Shown in pieces: positions 4,090-62,930 of a stretch of 64,000 nucleotides of DNA; within the stretch, counting starts at the first letter, position 1, and every line of letters starts with the position of its first letter. The stretch is taken from NCBI RefSeq assembly GCF_044324875.1, contig NZ_CP172185.1, one strand, 5' to 3'. Source of the stretch: Escherichia coli (GTDB lineage Bacteria > Pseudomonadota > Gammaproteobacteria > Enterobacterales > Enterobacteriaceae). Made by a program: the position numbers and the translations under genes. The notes beneath the pieces were generated by a model. That model worked only from the letters and a program-made list of their open reading frames with translations. It was not told the origin of the DNA and searched no databases.

Positions 4090-5489
4090 ACTTCTCTCTG
4101 TAAATCCCGTTCCAGCGGTAACTCTACTGTAATGCTTACCCCGCCAAAAGGCGAATGGGCAGCAATAATGCGACCATTATGTGCTTCAACAATGTTCAGG
4201 CAAATCGCCAGCCCCAGCCCGGAACCGCCGCTGGCTCGGTTGCGGGAACCTTCGGTGCGATAAAAACGTTCAAACAATTTTTGTAGCTGATCGTCACTGA
4301 CGCCCGGCGCGCTGTCGGCAAAGGTCAGTCGCACCGTTTTGTCGTGCTGCTCGGCAGAGATTTTCAGGCTACCGCCGCTGTCAGTGTAGCGCAGGCTGTT
4401 TTCCAGTAAGTTATTGAATAACTGCATTAAACGGTCGCGATCGCCAAATACGGTAATACTGTCTGGCAGGGAAAATTGCAGTTTCAGGCCACGGCTGGCG
4501 AATCGTTCGCGAAATGCGCCGCCCGCCACTTCCAGCAGTGGGATCAAATCTACCGGTGCTTTTTGATAGGCGAGAGCGCCTTCATCAGACATCGACAACT
4601 GATGGAGATCGTCAACCAGTTTGGTCAGTGTACCGACCTCCGCCTGTAAAGACGCCACCGTCTCCGGCGTGAATTTACGCACGCCATCCTGAATGGCTTC
4701 CAGTTCACCGCGCAGCACCGCTAATGGCGTACGCAGTTCGTGAGAAATATCGGCCATAAAATCGCGCCGCATTTGCTGGTTTTTCTCCAGCGTGCTGGCA
4801 AGCTGGTTGAAGTCTTGCGCCAGTTTGCCCAGTTCATCTTCACTGGTGGGTGTCACGCGGGTAGTGAAATCGCCCGCCGCCAGTTTGTGCGTGCCGTCCA
4901 CCAGCCGTTTGACCGGGGCCAACAGACCACGCGCCAGCAGAAAGGTGGCGAGTGCCGCGAGTAACGTAGCCAGGGCGACAATCAGCCAGCTGGTTTGCCG
5001 CTGTTGTTTATCGAAATTGATATCAGTATTGCGGGTCAGTCGCTCAACAGGGGAGGCAATCACCGCACCCACTTCCGCACCGTTGACCAGAATGGGTCGC
5101 CGTGTACCGTCAGGTGGAATCGGCGCTCGCGGACCAACCAGCACTTTGTTGTTTTGATCGATCACCCAGAACTGAGTACGCCAGCCGTGCGGAGGCATAC
5201 CCGGGCCGGGTTTATCTTCCGAATTATCGTGTTCAAATGAACGCAGGATCTGAAAGACAAAGCGATCGTTGTTGCGCAGGAAGCGCCAGTTGCCATGCTG
5301 CGCATACTGCTCGCCAAGCGCATCACTTAACAGCTGTAATCGCTGTTCATTGCCGTGTTTGATGTAATCAATAAAGCCACGCTCAAAACTGATACGCACC
5401 GCCCAGTGCATACTGATCAGCAAGACAATGCAGGTGGCGAAAATCGCCAGAAACAGTTTGCCGGTAATACCGGGTCGCCAGAACTTCAT
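4086..5489 (-). CDS. baeS: envelope-stress sensor histidine kinase BaeS
   Basis: 467-aa ORF with N-terminal TM segment, HAMP, H-box (SHELRTPL) and HATPase motifs (GGSGLGLAI). Confidence 0.95.
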
Positions 5490-14420: not shown

Positions 14421-14585
14421 TGGAGGAATTATGAAACACTGTCGGGAATCGTCTGAATGACGGGCACATTTGCGAGCACGCATCCAGTAATAACACATGA
14501 AACTATTTTATCTACGCGTTAGCGATAGACTGCTTGCATGGCGAAAGGAGGTAAGCCGACGATTTCAGCGGGACGCTGAAACGGG

Positions 14586-14727
14586 AAAGCCCCTCCCGAG
14601 GAAGGGGCCTTAAATAAGGAAAGGGTCATGATGAAGTGGATCATCATCGTGGTGCTCTTAGTGATTAGCTACCCAGCATACTAAGACTACCAGGGCGGGG
14701 GAAACCCCGCTCTACCCTCACTCCTGA
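14586..14727 (-). ncRNA. Sib-type antisense sRNA (antitoxin) covering ibs copy 1; ends approximate
   Basis: Sib RNAs are known to be encoded fully antisense to ibs ORFs. A GC hairpin at 14589..14610 on the minus strand is followed by a short T run and could be the Sib terminator. The 5' end is not determinable from sequence. Confidence 0.45.
14628..14684 (+). CDS. Ibs-family type I toxin (18 aa, MMKWIIIVVLLVISYPAY)
   Basis: ATGATG start preceded by aaggaaaggg; 18 hydrophobic codons then TAA; sits inside repeat unit 1. Matches the Ibs toxin family pattern. Confidence 0.75.
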   Translation: MMKWIIIVVLLVISYPAY

Positions 14728-14913
14728 AAGTATGCCTTCACGATAAGATTGTCAATCTGCAGGCTTTGCAGTCTGCGATCCTGCCAGCAAATATTCTTTG
14801 CGAGACGTTACGCAATAATCACACTGGAAACTATTTTATCCGCAAGTCAGCGATAGACTGCATACAGGGCGAAAGGAGGTAAGTCGACGATTTCAGCGGG
14901 ACGCTGAAACGGG

Positions 14914-15055
14914 AAAGCCCCTCCCGAGGAAGGGGCCTTAAATAAGGAAAGGGTCATGATGAAGCTACTCATCATCGTGGTGCTCTTAGTCATAAGCTTC
15001 CCCGCTTACTAAGACTACCAGGGCGGGGGAAACCCCGCTCTACCCTCACTCCTGA
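14914..15055 (-). ncRNA. Sib-type antisense sRNA covering ibs copy 2; ends approximate
   Basis: Placed by position equivalence with copy 1 within repeat unit 2. Confidence 0.45.
14956..15012 (+). CDS. Ibs-family type I toxin (18 aa, MMKLLIIVVLLVISFPAY)
   Basis: Same architecture as copy 1, in repeat unit 2. Confidence 0.75.
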   Translation: MMKLLIIVVLLVISFPAY

Positions 15056-15242
15056 AATTATGCCTTCACGATAAGATTGTCAATCCGCAGGCTTTGCAGT
15101 CTGCGATCCTGCCAGCAAATATTCTTTGCGAGTCGTTACGCAATAATCACAGAGGAAACTATTTTGTTCACGCGTTAGCGATAGACTGCATTCAGGGCGA
15201 AAGGAGGTAAGCCGACGATTTCAGCGGGACGCTGAAACGGGA

Positions 15243-15385
15243 AACCCTCTCCCGGAGAAGAGGGCTTTTAATAAGGAAAGGGTTATGATGAAGCACGTCA
15301 TCATACTGGTGATACTCTTAGTGATTAGCTTCCAGGCTTACTAAGAACACCAGGGGGAGGGGGAAACCTCTCCCTAACCCTCACT
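15243..15385 (-). ncRNA. Sib-type antisense sRNA covering ibs copy 3; ends approximate
   Basis: Placed by position equivalence. Hairpin ccctctcccggagaagaggg replaces gcccctcccgaggaaggggc of unit 1 with compensatory changes. Confidence 0.45.
15285..15344 (+). CDS. Ibs-family type I toxin (19 aa, MMKHVIILVILLVISFQAY)
   Basis: Same architecture in repeat unit 3. Flanking hairpins differ in sequence from units 1-2 but keep complementarity. Confidence 0.75.
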   Translation: MMKHVIILVILLVISFQAY

Positions 15386-15564
15386 CCTGAAATTATGTCA
15401 CTCCGCCCTTAGTGTCAATCGACGGCTCTCCGTTCTTGCGAGGCGAATAGCAAAATTTTCTGCGCCGCCGGGCCTAATTCTGAAAGTTGCTTTGCCTGCT
15501 CATATTTCATTGTTGCAGTCGGTATGATACCGGACCTCAATAATTCTCTAAGAAAGGATTTCTT

Positions 15565-30454: not shown

Positions 30455-30493
30455 CAGTGTATTGGTAGCTAAAAAGCCAGGGGCGGTAGCGTG
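30455..30493 (+). promoter_or_regulatory. JUMPstart element with ops site (RfaH-dependent antitermination) in the colanic acid operon leader
   Basis: cagtgtattggtagctaaaaagccaggggcggtagcgtg contains the ops core GGCGGTAGCGTG (30482..30493), about 180 bp upstream of wza. Confidence 0.8.
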
Positions 30494-34425: not shown

Positions 34426-34435
34426 CGAGATCCGC

Positions 34436-34500
34436 TGTCGGATGCGATGCTGACGCATCTTATCCGACCTCCGTTCACGCCGCATCCGGCAACAGAACCC
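34436..34500. repeat. REP element between wzc and wcaA
   Basis: cggatgcgatgctgacgcatcttatccgacc...gccgcatccggca REP-type palindromes. Confidence 0.65.
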
Positions 34501-34553
34501 GTAAACAAGCTTATAAACCGGCAGAACATCTCGACACTCCGGGAGAACAACCT

Positions 34554-54962: not shown

Positions 54963-54996
54963 CACTGGTAGCTGTTAAGCCAGGGGCGGTAGCGTG
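54963..54996 (+). promoter_or_regulatory. JUMPstart element with ops site upstream of the O-antigen gene cluster
   Basis: cactggtagctgttaagccaggggcggtagcgtg contains the ops core GGCGGTAGCGTG (54985..54996), in the galF to O-antigen intergenic region. Confidence 0.85.
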
Positions 54997-57296: not shown

Positions 57297-58712
57297 ATGA
57301 TTATCCCAATTATTATGGCCGGTGGTTCTGGTACTCGCTTATGGCCTCTTTCGCGTTCGTTATACCCGAAACAATTTTTATCATTGATTAATGAAAATAG
57401 TTTGCTCCAGGAAACGTTGAAGAGACTTGATGGATTAAATTGTTTGCCTCCTGTCATTGTTAGCAATAATGAGCATAGATTTATTGTTGCTGAACAATTG
57501 CGACAGTTCGGTGTGGATGACTTCCAGATTATTCTAGAACCTGTAGGTAGAAATACTGCGCCCGCCGTTGCGCTGGCTGCTCTAAAGTCTCTAGAACTCC
57601 ATGGCGATCATCATATGCTGGTTCTTGCTGCTGACCATGCTATTCAGGATATTGAAGCCTTCCATGCAGCTGTTTTAGCTGCAGAACAAGAGTCCGTTGA
57701 CAATAAGTTAGTGACTTTTGGCATCGTCCCGACCAAACCTGAAACTGGGTATGGCTATATTAAAAAGGGCGAACAAGTTAAAAACTCTGTATTTAAAGTA
57801 AATTCTTTCGTCGAAAAACCTGATTTAGAAACGGCTAAAAATTATCTCGAACAAAAATGCTATTTGTGGAATAGTGGTATGTTCATGTTCAAGGCGAGCG
57901 TATATTTAGATGAATTGAAAAAATTTCGCCCTGATATTTTAGCAGCGTGTAAAGAGTCGCTTTCCAGTGCTAGTACTGATCTAGATTTTATCAGATTAAA
58001 TTCTGATGTCTTTGCAGAATGTCCCGATGAGTCAATTGATTATGCGGTAATGGAAAAAACTCAGGATTGTGTAGTTATTCCACTTGATGCTGACTGGAGT
58101 GACATCGGTTCATGGACATCACTTTGGGAAATATCAGAGAAAGATGAACATGAAAACGTATCGCATGGCGATGTAATTAACTATAACAGCAGGAACAACT
58201 ACATTTACTCTGAAGGTTCACTGATCAGCACTGTAGGAGTTAATAACCTTATTATAGTTCAAACTAAAGATGCGCTCCTGGTAGCACAGCAAGACAACGT
58301 ACAAGACATAAAGAAGATTGTCGAAATTCTTAAAAAGCAAAAACGTAGCGAACATATATCCCATCGCGAAGTCTATCGTCCTTGGGGACGTTATGATTCT
58401 GTAGAACGTGGCGACCGTTATCAGGTAAAGCGTATTACCGTTAAGCCTGGTGAATGTCTCTCAACACAAATGCATCATCATCGAGCTGAGCATTGGGTGG
58501 TTGTCGCTGGTACTGCAAAGGTGACTTGCGGCGAACGCACTTTTTTCGTCACTGAAAATGAGTCAACTTTCATACCAATTGGCACAGTTCATACCTTGGA
58601 AAATCCAGGAAAGATACCATTAGAAGTAATTGAGATTCAGTCGGGTGTATATCTAGGTGATGATGATATTGTGCGCCTAAGTGATAAATATGGTCGTGTT
58701 GAGGATAAATAA
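57297..58712 (+). CDS. manC: mannose-1-phosphate guanylyltransferase (O-antigen copy)
   Basis: 471-aa ORF; N-terminus [28 protein letters not shown] and C-terminal cupin nearly identical in motif to cpsB, but in AT-rich codon usage. Confidence 0.9.
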
Positions 58713-58716
58713 TTAT

Positions 58717-60138
58717 ATGAATATTACCAATGATGTAATTAAAAATAGCGGAATTGCATTTGGTACAAGTGGTGCTCGTGGATTAGTGAAAGATTTTACA
58801 CCCAACGTGTGTGCTGCATTCACTTATGCTTTTATCGATGTAATGATGAAGGATTTTTCTTTTAAAGAGGTTGCGCTCGCAATAGATAATCGCCCAAGCA
58901 GCTATGCTATGGCACAAGCTTGCGCAGCAGCATTGTTGGAATGTAGTATTAAACCTATTTACTACGGTGTAATTCCAACTCCAGCTTTGGCAAATCAAGC
59001 GATTGCCGATGGGATTCCTGCAATAATGGTTACTGGAAGTCATATTCCATTTGATAGAAATGGTTTGAAATTCTATCGTCCAGACGGGGAAATTTCAAAA
59101 GAAAATGAGAACAGCATTATACATGCTGAAAAAGAGTATCCTGATGTAACTGTATTGCCAGAATTACAATGTTCAAAGCGTGCCGCTGATACTTATATCG
59201 AGAGAAACACTTCAATTTTTTCAAATATATTTAAAGGTAAACGTATCGGGATTTATGAACATTCAAGTGCGGGACGGGATCTTTATTCAGAAATATTCAG
59301 TAAGCTTGGTGCTGAAGTTGTAAGTATTGGTAGAAGTGATGAGTTTGTGCCTATTGATACTGAAGCAGTATCAAAAGAAGATGAAGAAAAAGCTTTACAC
59401 TGGTCATCTGAGTATGACCTCGATATGATTTTTTCTACCGATGGTGATGGCGATCGTCCTTTGGTTGCTGACGAAAATGGCGTTTGGTTACGGGGTGATA
59501 TATTAGGACTATTTTGCTCAAAGGCAATGAATATTGAAGCGGTAGCTGTACCTGTAAGTTGTAATACGGTTATTCAGACTTGCGGGTGGTTTAATCATGT
59601 AACGCTGACTAAAATTGGTTCACCATACGTCATTTCAGCGTTTGATTCTCTGAATAATAGTTTTGATAGGGTTGCAGGGTTTGAGGCTAACGGTGGGTAT
59701 CTTTTAGGTAGCGATGTAAATTATAACAGCGGTATGATTAAAGCGCTTCCAACAAGAGATGCTGTTTTGCCTGCTTTAATGGTACTGGCACTGGCTATAA
59801 AAAATAATGTGACTATTTCAAAACTCTTGGCGGAGTTGCCACCACGATTTACCTACTCAAATAGAGTTCAAAATTTTGCAACAAGCAAAAGTAAAAGCAT
59901 TATCGCGTCAGCTCAAGAAAATCCTCAAGAATTTATCGAAAGAATAGGCTTTGTCGATCTTCATGTACAATCGGTGGATACAATTGACGGGTTAAGATTG
60001 ACACTAAGTGATGGTTCAATAATCCATTTGCGACCGTCAGGCAACGCACCTGAATTGCGATGCTATGCAGAAGCAGATAACATAATAAAAGCTGAAAAAT
60101 TAGTGTTAGAAGTTTTGCATAAAGTTACTCTTTTGTAA
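58717..60138 (+). CDS. manB: phosphomannomutase-type phosphohexomutase (O-antigen copy)
   Basis: ATG at 58717 gives [29 protein letters not shown]...; active-site region [17 protein letters not shown]. The ORF-track start at 58681 is a GTG inside manC. Gene symbol assigned by function and cluster context, not by match to a specific known locus. Confidence 0.8.
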
Positions 60139-60321
60139 AAAAATATAAACTTTTTTCTACTCTTGAGCGGTTTGTCATTTAACCGCTCAGTAATAGATTG
60201 TTTATAAATTGTTTATATTTAGCATTGGTGTTTTTATTTGCGTTCATCCCGAATAAGAGATTGTAAAATTAACTGTTTCTTATTTTTCAAATGAGTTACT
60301 TCACTAGTAAAGCTAATTACT

Positions 60322-61653
60322 ATGCATAAGCAATATTATTCATTATTGTGCAATAAAATACAGTTTAAACATCTGGCTATATATTTTTCTGTATTTCTTT
60401 CACTATCCTCATGTTTCTTGTGGGGAGGGGCGGATACATTTGTATCGCAAGTGTATATTGATATTTTAGCCACTATATCTACAGCGCTATTAGTTGTTTT
60501 GATGTTCTATTATTATATTAATAGAGTTCGCTATTTATCACTAACCTTACTTTTTGCATTCGTTTTTTCTTTGATTATTGGTTTGCCATCGATTTATCTT
60601 TACTATTTTAAAAACGCAAATCATGGGTTTGAAATAATTTGTATCTGGGGGATGTTGATCAATTCCATCCTTTACTTGCAAACAACAGAGACTGTCATAA
60701 AAGAAGAAAAAAGATATTTAACTAGTTTATTTTATATTTTGTTTTCTATTGTTGCACTGTGTCAATTATACAAAATATTAATTTATCTTATGTTTATATT
60801 GAATTCAGGAGAAGGGCATTTAGCAATTTATACTGAAAGCGAAGAATTGCTATCCCAAGTTCCATTTTTTATTCGTGCTATTAGTGGTTTTGCAGTTGTA
60901 ATGTCATTGTCCACTTTTTATTTTAAAACACCGACCTACATTAAAGTTATTGCATTTGTTTTACTTGCATCTGATTTAGCTATTGGAATACGTAATAAGT
61001 TTTTCTTTTCAGTGATTTGTATTTTTATACTATATATGTACTCTAATGAGTATAGAGTAAGAAATTTATTTAAGCAACTCTCAAAACCAATATTTCTCAT
61101 CGCCGGTTTTTTATGCTTCTCGATGGTATCGTATTTCCGTGAAGGGTACCAAATCGATTTTATGATTTATATTGGCATTGTTTTAGATTCGCTATCCTCT
61201 ACTCTTGGGGGGATGCAGAATTTGTTTGATATGCAATCATCAGGATGGGATCAACTTCATCCCGCTGTGGTATTCACACAAGTATTACCGCTAAGCGGTC
61301 TTGGTTTTCTTGATGATCAACAAATCGCAAAAGATTTTTCAATAATTGTTTTAGGTGATGTATCCTCTGGTATTGCGTTGTCATCTTCAGGATTGTTAGA
61401 GTCATCGTTGCTGAGTCTAAACTTGGGAGTGATTATTTATTTACTGTATTTATCAGGGGTGATGCTTTTTATTAAATGGGGACTAAATAATCAACGGATA
61501 ATAATAAACTTTGTTGCCATCTCCATGATATCTGGATTTTTTTATGCTGTTCGTGGTGAACTGATTTTGCCATTGGCTTTTCTTCTAAAATCATTGCCGA
61601 TTGTTCTTATATCTCCATTACTTGTTAAAAATAAAATTTATCATGGTCAGTAA
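60322..61653 (+). CDS. wzy: probable O-antigen polymerase (Wzy-type polytopic membrane protein)
   Basis: 443-aa strongly hydrophobic, very AT-rich ORF with about 10-12 predicted TM segments and no MOP-family N-terminal motif. Assigned by exclusion and cluster context. Confidence 0.6.
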   Translation: MHKQYYSLLCNKIQFKHLAIYFSVFLSLSSCFLWGGADTFVSQVYIDILATISTALLVVLMFYYYINRVRYLSLTLLFAFVFSLIIGLPSIYLYYFKNANHGFEIICIWGMLINSILYLQTTETVIKEEKRYLTSLFYILFSIVALCQLYKILIYLMFILNSGEGHLAIYTESEELLSQVPFFIRAISGFAVVMSLSTFYFKTPTYIKVIAFVLLASDLAIGIRNKFFFSVICIFILYMYSNEYRVRNLFKQLSKPIFLIAGFLCFSMVSYFREGYQIDFMIYIGIVLDSLSSTLGGMQNLFDMQSSGWDQLHPAVVFTQVLPLSGLGFLDDQQIAKDFSIIVLGDVSSGIALSSSGLLESSLLSLNLGVIIYLLYLSGVMLFIKWGLNNQRIIINFVAISMISGFFYAVRGELILPLAFLLKSLPIVLISPLLVKNKIYHGQ

Positions 61654-61694: not shown

Positions 61695-62930
61695 ATGATC
61701 AAAGAAATTTTCTCCGATGGCATTTTTTCGCTATTTAATAAAATATGTTACTTCGGTTTTAAAACACTTGCAATAATTCTGATTACTCGTTCCTTAGGAG
61801 AAGATGTAGGCGGAGAGTTCATTTTTTTAGTTGGTTTTCTCGAAGTCCTTCGGGTGGTTACTGATTTTGGTGTGGATCTGTTTGTTATAAAAAAATATAA
61901 TGATTCTACAGATAAAATAAAACTATTAAATGTAACGTTTGCACAAAAAATTCTTTCTGGAGTAATTGTTTTACTACTGTTTTGTTTGTATTCTTTTGTT
62001 CAGGGTTATCAATATAATGTCTATATTCCTATTGTGTTAGCCTTACCTGTTGCTTTATTTTTTAATTTCTCAAATAGCTATTTTCAATCTCTCAATTCCA
62101 ATAAATCTCTCACGTTTCCGATCGCAATTGCATCTATTGCAACGTGTACGATCTTCGCTATTCAGTATTTTTTAAACGTTAAATTTAACGCATGGGATTA
62201 CCTGTGTGTTGAACTATTATTCGTATCGCTGGTTACACTAAAACTATTCGTTAGTGTCAAGTTTAGGTTTATTAGAACGTCAGCTTTTGATGTGCTAATG
62301 TCAATTCTTTCTTTATATAAATATACATTAAGTATAGGTCTTACAGCTGTTGTTGTAATTATTTATAGCCGTATAGATAATTTTTATCTCAAGACATTTG
62401 CCCCAGGGGATCTTGCAGCATATGGCCAGATATTTAGGATGGTTGATCCACTGGTTATGGTTTCTTCTGTATTTTCTACAGTTGCCTATGCAAGATTTTG
62501 CCGAATTAACTTACAAGAAAAAAATGCTTTTACTAAGGTGTTTCAGTTCCTGTTATGTATTGTGGCATATGGCGTGCTGAGTTCATTAGTTTATTTCTTT
62601 ATAATAAAATACCTGGGTCATTTTGTATTGATTTCTAATGTTAATAATGATTTCTTGATAATGATGTTCTTGATTGTTGCATGTGTGAAATGTATCAATG
62701 GTGGTACAACTGCAATAATTCAGTCACAGGGGTTTTATAAAGTGGGTTTGTATGTTTCGTATGTTTGCATTTTGACATCGATACCAACTATGTATTTCTT
62801 AATAATGAAGTACGGTGTTAAAGGTGCTGCTATGACGATTCTGCTTGTAGAGTGTATTAGTTTCATATTACTTCTCTGCAGCTTTTTTATGATAAAAAAG
62901 ATGCGTCCTAAAAAAACATTCGAAATGTAA
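61695..62930 (+). CDS. wzx: probable O-antigen flippase (Wzx, MOP family)
   Basis: 411-aa polytopic membrane ORF with N-terminal FNKICYFGFKTLAIILITRSLGEDVGGEF resembling the Wzx/polysaccharide-biosynthesis-protein N-terminal motif. Confidence 0.65.
   Translation: MIKEIFSDGIFSLFNKICYFGFKTLAIILITRSLGEDVGGEFIFLVGFLEVLRVVTDFGVDLFVIKKYNDSTDKIKLLNVTFAQKILSGVIVLLLFCLYSFVQGYQYNVYIPIVLALPVALFFNFSNSYFQSLNSNKSLTFPIAIASIATCTIFAIQYFLNVKFNAWDYLCVELLFVSLVTLKLFVSVKFRFIRTSAFDVLMSILSLYKYTLSIGLTAVVVIIYSRIDNFYLKTFAPGDLAAYGQIFRMVDPLVMVSSVFSTVAYARFCRINLQEKNAFTKVFQFLLCIVAYGVLSSLVYFFIIKYLGHFVLISNVNNDFLIMMFLIVACVKCINGGTTAIIQSQGFYKVGLYVSYVCILTSIPTMYFLIMKYGVKGAAMTILLVECISFILLLCSFFMIKKMRPKKTFEM

Follow-up and report, generated by a model that had tools for sequence, protein, structure and literature searches.

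A structurally conserved RNA hairpin between manB and wzy in the O-antigen operon of the Escherichia coli O77 group: a candidate mRNA-decay boundary

The O-antigen operon and the manB-wzy gap

The window, by which we mean the whole 64-kb stretch of DNA analyzed, carries in its last 9 kb the O-antigen gene cluster common to E. coli O17, O44, O73, O77, and O106. As summarized in a review, the clusters of these 5 serogroups are >99% identical and specify one backbone, rich in mannose, that is common to all (PMC7685785). RefSeq and Pfam give the same order of genes, all on the + strand: galF, 2 glycosyltransferase (GT) genes, manC, manB, a 183-nt gap, wzy, wzx, and gnd. The following features were annotated in the operon and, for the Sib RNAs, elsewhere in the window:

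54985-54996, + strand: ops element GGCGGTAGCGTG in the operon leader, approximately 100 nt 5' of the first glycosyltransferase gene
57297-58712, + strand: manC (Pfam and RefSeq)
58717-60138, + strand: manB, the phosphomannomutase gene, which closes the manC-manB precursor module (Pfam PGM_PMM I-IV domains and RefSeq; approximately 39% G+C)
60136-60138, + strand: TAA stop codon of manB (from the sequence)
60139-60162, + strand: A/U/C-rich 24-nt spacer between the manB stop codon and the stem (from the sequence)
60139-60321, + strand: manB-wzy intergenic region of 183 nt (27% G+C), the sole long gap inside the operon
60322-61653, + strand: wzy, encoding the O-antigen polymerase, which opens the wzy-wzx segment (RefSeq; approximately 30% G+C)
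61695-62930, + strand: wzx (RefSeq)
14613-14755, 14941-15083, and 15270-15418, - strand: Sib RNAs (Rfam RF00113)

The layout of the operon is ops-GT-GT-manC-manB-hairpin-wzy-wzx, and the presence of the ops element in the leader places it among the RfaH-dependent operons known from O-antigen and capsule loci (PMC9765446, PMC2871177). Three ops-type sites were found in the window against 0.05 expected. A further ops site, again GGCGGTAGCGTG, is located at 30482-30493 (+ strand), approximately 190 nt 5' of the 379-aa ORF that opens the colanic-acid (wza) operon, and another ops-type site, GGCGGTAGCCTG, at 4365-4376 (- strand). Also outside the cluster, a 328-bp tandem array (window 14488-15397) holds the 3 Sib antitoxin RNA genes (139-150 bits), which are Ibs/Sib type I toxin-antitoxin repeats; K-12 carries 2 copies at the corresponding locus.

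The region around the hairpin is 100% identical to that of E. coli 042 and is present in 93 of 5426 complete E. coli genomes. By blastn, the manB-wzy gap occurs a single time per genome and only in these 93 genomes, which carry this O-antigen cluster. Two properties of the operon change across the gap. The G+C content steps at the hairpin from approximately 39% in manC-manB to approximately 30% in wzy-wzx, and wzy is devoid of a Shine-Dalgarno sequence, with a predicted anti-Shine-Dalgarno duplex of -0.1 kcal/mol compared to -8.5 kcal/mol for manC and -6.0 kcal/mol for manB. Ribosome density on wzy-wzx was judged from this Shine-Dalgarno strength (-0.1 kcal/mol for wzy), which is only a proxy.

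Structure and conservation of the hairpin

RNA folding placed a stem-loop in the gap, and RNAalifold independently gave the same helix:

60163-60190, + strand: RNA stem-loop
60163-60172, + strand: 5' arm, UUGAGCGGUU
60173-60180, + strand: loop, UGUCAUUU
60181-60190, + strand: 3' arm, AACCGCUCAG

The core 8-bp stem is formed by GAGCGGTT (60165-60172) and AACCGCTC (60181-60188), which enclose the loop tgtcattt (60173-60180). The pairs T60164-A60189 and U60163·G60190 extend it to 10 bp, consisting of 9 perfect pairs and 1 wobble and including 5 G-C pairs. In having a G+C-rich stem-loop of approximately 5-14 bp, the hairpin resembles an intrinsic terminator. The energy calculated for positions 60160-60195 was -15.1 kcal/mol, compared to a mean of -3.7 kcal/mol for shuffled sequences (z = -6.1), and none of the 200 shuffles was as stable. 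Across foldings, the energy of the hairpin ranged from -14.7 to -15.1 kcal/mol with z values of about -6 to -7, and the stem was retained when the entire gap was folded. The sequence-only reading had described a perfect 8-bp stem with an 8-nt loop (60165-60188) between manB and wzy in the O-antigen operon, directly after the manB stop and followed by AT-rich sequence, and had named low predicted stability as an observation that would speak against it. The stem, the loop, and the flanking genes (Pfam, RefSeq) are as it described, and the calculated energy is not that of a low-stability structure. Its placement of the hairpin after manB also holds, but the structure begins 24-26 nt past the stop codon and is not strictly adjacent to it.

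How much of this could arise by chance was estimated in the window and in the gap. Perfect stems of at least 8 bp gave 26 matches in the 64-kb window, approximately 20 of them distinct, against approximately 8.5 in Markov simulations, and a bare 8-bp stem is therefore unremarkable by itself. Shuffled versions of the 183-nt gap contained an 8-bp stem in 6-7% of cases; 9-bp stems were rarer (1.5-2.3%), and none of 20,000 shuffles had an 8-bp stem with 5 or more G-C pairs.

Relatives of the operon were reached through Wzy homologues, and all contigs found in this way carry manC-manB-wzy-wzx. ManB proteins with >70% identity are present in only 3 lineages of the protein database, the E. coli O77 group, the contig L005 (90%), and Salmonella enterica (L006/L045, 75%), and the comparative sample therefore cannot grow. 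A protein search of genome contigs with a single ManB found no relatives, and a search of genome contigs with a ManB alignment returned 8 loci of only 54-64% identity with non-homologous downstream regions. Scanning metagenome contigs with a degenerate manB 3' pattern produced 25 loci, made up of 12 identical E. coli copies and distant ManBs, with no new hairpin variants.

In all 3 lineages the hairpin begins exactly 24 nt past the manB stop codon, and the core of the 5' arm, AGCGGUUU, is identical while the 3' arm is altered. The substitutions keep the helix: G60165-C60188 is A-U in Salmonella, U60164-A60189 is G·U in L005, C60183 and C60184 are each replaced by U in one lineage, giving G·U, and the outer U·G pair of E. 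coli is U-A in both relatives. Among the 12 aligned pairs of the 3 lineages, 2 changed on both sides; another 4 changed on one side only and are still paired in 1 lineage or more. Overall, 91.7% of the cells were paired, compared to 26-47% when the partner columns were slid. The sample is small, at 3 lineages. The shuffle control is modest: 37 of 500 shuffles matched the observed covariation. In neutral simulations with 4 random stem substitutions, an energy of -13 kcal/mol or lower was kept in only 1-6%. The rest of the gap is 80% identical between E. coli and L005, and its alignment between E. coli and Salmonella does not rise above shuffle level. Judged from these comparisons, the hairpin is a real structure that evolution has maintained beyond chance expectation.

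The sense strand folds at -14.7, -13.0, and -13.1 kcal/mol in the 3 lineages and the antisense strand at -14.3, -7.3, and -11.2 kcal/mol. Stability of the sense strand with weakening of the antisense strand is the asymmetry expected if an mRNA tolerates G·U pairs. The loop differs among the lineages in sequence and in length (8, 3-4, and 5 nt); this suggests a role that is structural and generic, not one in binding a specific ligand. Altogether, these patterns favor selection on a generic sense-RNA stem. They also bear on the idea that the feature works as DNA, either as a palindromic protein-binding site or as an internal wzy-wzx promoter with a -35 element (TTGTCA) in the loop and a -10 element (TAGATT). 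The palindrome is perfect in E. coli and the promoter-like match at 60172-60199 scores 9/12; however, G·U-type changes break the DNA symmetry, the loop with the putative -35 element varies in both length and sequence, neither L005 nor L006 has kept the hexamers, and promoter-like matches are about as common as chance predicts (36 against 34.2 expected). We rejected the internal promoter on the match score, the chance frequency of such sites, and the lack of hexamer conservation, and consider a DNA-level element of any kind very improbable.

Several other features of the gap and of the related clusters were noted. A tandem direct repeat, 2 copies of ATTGTTTATA with an 11-nt period, is located just 3' of the hairpin (60197-60217, + strand), and L005 has a similar tandem, AATTATTT, at the same place. 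In the MFE fold an outer helix pairing 60142-60150 with 60211-60219 encloses the hairpin; it was discarded, being absent in L005 and L006. A second, AU-rich hairpin followed by UUC is found at 60251-60285 (+ strand), approximately 35 nt 5' of the wzy start. Its energy is -9.0 kcal/mol (z = -1.8), with 12 of 200 shuffles as stable, and L005 keeps it with 4 pair-preserving changes (A-U to G·U and the reverse), but Salmonella L006 does not have this hairpin; whether it is part of the same feature as the main hairpin is uncertain. A 12-codon mini-ORF (MSYFTSKANYYA, then a stop codon) spans 60291-60329 (+ strand), has no Shine-Dalgarno sequence, and ends with a stop codon that overlaps codons 2-3 of wzy. 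This frame is open in L005, where all 3 differences are non-synonymous, and absent in Salmonella, and it is probably not coding. In the Salmonella-type cluster (L006 5625-5894), an 89-aa HTH_29 ORF between wzx and gnd is likely a transposase remnant.

Terminators after manB and other classes of element

No U-tract follows the stem, the tail being UAAUAGAU. The d'Aubenton-Carafa tail score of the window hairpin is 0.5-1.4, and a terminator scan did not call the hairpin. On these 3 grounds it was rejected as a canonical intrinsic terminator. The same holds for the tail in all 3 hairpin lineages, which have scores of 0.5-2.0 and no U-tract in any of them. Scanning 59000-61500 against Rfam 15 at E <= 10 gave no match that overlaps 60160-60195. 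A REP/BIME or other repeated extragenic palindrome was excluded because each of the 93 genomes with the cluster has the element at a single place and none of the other genomes has it; 9-mers of the arms do occur elsewhere in the window, only singly and never paired.

Genuine terminators are nonetheless found at this position in other clusters. An offset of 23-24 nt from the stop codon to the hairpin is shared by L005, L006, L007, L011, L046, and L052. In L007/L008, where manB also precedes wzy, a strong hairpin, AAAAAGGUAAUAAC...GUUAUUGCCUUUUUAU, is located at 23-24 nt, and in L046-L051, in which manB closes the cluster and an unrelated LysR gene follows, the hairpin AAAAAGGGCAACA...UGUUGCCUUUUUUU is located at 23-24 nt; neither is homologous in sequence to the window hairpin. 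Both have the textbook form of a terminator, and their tails score 4.3 and 5.2. The one in L007 (2811-2850, same sequence in L008) is a canonical intrinsic terminator between manB and wzy made of an A-tract, a 9-bp GC-containing stem, and UUUUUAUU, in a relative with 61% Wzy identity. It follows that wzy-wzx in L007/L008 must need antitermination or a promoter of its own, and that true termination at the manB-wzy junction is tolerated and could be the ancestral role of this site. L052, from another E. coli serogroup, has a 13-bp hairpin 23 nt past the manB stop codon, and L009-L011, which encode an enterobacterial ManB of 456 aa, have hairpins of -13 to -19 kcal/mol 16-23 nt past the stop. Many, though not all, of the distant marine and metagenomic ManB loci also have a post-manB hairpin. 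In other serogroups of E. coli, manB stands at or near the end, before gnd. The shared offset, together with the G+C step, indicates that the window hairpin sits where manCB cassettes normally end in a terminator. The equivalence is one of position only, since multiple and local alignments of the window hairpin with the canonical terminators of L046, L007, and L052 were no better than alignments of shuffled sequences. The canonical terminators after manB in L046 and L007/L008 thus have the position (23-24 nt) and a similar stem energy in common with the window hairpin, and differ from it and its 2 homologues in their A-tract/stem/U-tract architecture (tail scores of 4.3-5.2 versus 0.5-2.0).

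One reading of this shared position is that the hairpin is a leaky intrinsic terminator, or stabilizes a pause, and so halts part of the polymerases after manB, and that RfaH-modified polymerase reads through it, which would make expression of wzy-wzx RfaH-dependent. The ops element upstream would fit, as would the offset in common with canonical terminators in L007/L008 and in L046, the latter with manB as its last gene. A precedent exists in other polysaccharide operons: the capsule stem-loop attenuator was reportedly described by Rahn and Whitfield in 2003. Stem-loop attenuators are found after wzc in RfaH-controlled operons, those for colanic acid and group 1 capsule (PMC2516531, PMC3438125), and the attenuator role of the capsule element is based on experiments that both cite. 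Against this reading, the hairpin was not called by the terminator scan and has no A-tract upstream, and a U-tract is missing in all 3 lineages, whose tails score well below the 4.3-5.2 of real terminators. Release of E. coli polymerase normally depends on a U-tract (see also PMC6061677). We therefore regard attenuation as possible but unlikely. The suggestion of a partial terminator made in the sequence-only reading is likewise a weak one, given the missing U-tract, the scan, and a tail score of 0.5-1.4 versus 4.3 and 5.2. Its other proposal, a processing site or boundary between the precursor genes and wzy-wzx, fits better in view of the sense-strand conservation, the G+C step, and the missing Shine-Dalgarno sequence of wzy.

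A second reading takes the hairpin for a functionless relic, the remnant of a terminator that once ended the manC-manB cassette and was carried along when the cassette was joined to wzy-wzx. Such a history would agree with the drop from approximately 39% to approximately 30% G+C at the hairpin, with the relatives in which manB is terminal and has a true terminator at the same offset, with the last or near-last place of manB before gnd in other E. coli serogroups, and with a surrounding gap that is saturated with change. The compensatory changes disfavor it: approximately 7 arm substitutions in 3 lineages all keep the pairing, at -13 to -15 kcal/mol, an outcome expected in 1-6% per lineage in the neutral simulations. 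The asymmetry in favor of the sense strand and the failure to find sequence homology to the canonical terminators also speak against a relic, which we consider doubtful, about as much so as attenuation.

The third reading assigns the hairpin to Rho. Rho would stop transcription in the untranslated gap and exonucleases would trim the transcript to the hairpin, which would then mark the steady-state 3' end of a Rho-dependent terminator. Stable stem-loops without a U-tract do mark Rho-dependent 3' ends in E. coli (PMC6061677), and the locus is AT-rich foreign DNA with a long untranslated gap. However, C is not enriched over G downstream: the skew (C-G)/(C+G) is -0.37 for the first 80 nt (60191-60270) and -0.12 for 60191-60321, on which grounds a Rho-utilization (rut) site was rejected. 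Moreover, on operons with ops, RfaH keeps NusG away and opposes Rho (PMC9765446, PMC2871177). Rho-dependent termination thus appears as remote an explanation as a DNA-level element.

A candidate decay boundary and its relation to known systems

The explanation we tentatively prefer, with slightly less than even confidence, is that the sense-RNA hairpin is the structure-selected 3' boundary of GT-GT-manC-manB and acts as a barrier to 3' exonucleases for this upstream segment. RNA polymerase would transcribe through the hairpin because no U-tract follows to release it, and any pausing or termination would be reduced further by RfaH loaded at ops. Cleavage or premature ending would then affect the RNA downstream, namely the AU-rich leader and wzy-wzx, which is poorly translated, and 3'-to-5' exonucleases (PNPase, RNase II) would trim this RNA back to the hairpin and halt there. 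Because of this halt, the precursor and transferase segment would outlast the wzy-wzx segment, resulting in a low dosage of polymerase and flippase. A search of the literature and for 3'-end, half-life, expression, or TSS data found none for the locus or for strain 042. We infer the cleavage, the exonuclease block, and the differential stability. The hairpin, which appears not to have been described individually before, probably belongs to an ordinary kind of element, as a barrier to mRNA decay or at most a weak attenuator that RfaH can override, and not to a new kind.

A more elaborate version, which we consider improbable, though less so than a Rho-dependent end, combines elements of these readings. 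The hairpin would be the 'defanged' descendant of a manB-terminal terminator that lost its U-tract and kept its stem by selection, and would now, as a decay boundary and a checkpoint gated by RfaH, determine how much Wzy/Wzx is made relative to the glycosyltransferases and the precursor enzymes. If so, it could influence O-antigen polymerization and chain length and could recur at manCB module boundaries in Wzx/Wzy-type clusters. More generally, should relative mRNA stability or read-through between manB and wzy indeed be set by the hairpin, this would help to explain how polymerase and flippase levels stay far below those of the sugar-precursor enzymes, which the same operon encodes. Efforts to engineer or attenuate O-antigen expression in pathogens of the O77 group, such as EAEC 042 and the recent O77g STEC strains, would then also have a point at which to intervene. 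As matters stand, the hairpin is a minor candidate for a regulatory detail, plausible in itself, in an operon of a well-known type.

Within polysaccharide operons, the closest counterpart is the wzc attenuator of the colanic-acid, group 1 capsule K30, and Klebsiella cps operons. Both this attenuator and the manB hairpin lie inside an ops/RfaH-controlled operon, at the border between functional modules, and part one gene block from the block that holds wzy and wzx; the sequences of the two elements are unrelated. The colanic-acid operon of the window itself has a REP-like hairpin, GUCGGAUGCGAUGCUGACGCAUCUUAUCCGAC, at 34437-34468 (+ strand), 11 nt past the wzc stop codon in the wzc-wcaA gap (34426-34553). 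It is located at the position of the reported stem-loop attenuator and is also without a U-tract.

[quoted passage not shown] It has the stable boundary hairpin without a U-tract that characterizes protective 3' hairpins (PMC5927463), and it is conserved in homologous operons, those of L005 and Salmonella L006/L045, with only 3 lineages in all. The model case of the class is malE-malF of the maltose operon (PMC5927463). The manB hairpin has in common with this class a stable stem-loop without a U-tract, located within the operon just past the upstream cistron, a structure retained in more than one species, and a downstream segment for which poor translation is predicted. It differs in being single-copy and intergenic, whereas malE-malF has a multi-copy REP sequence and many of the examples of Dar and Sorek are located inside the downstream ORF.
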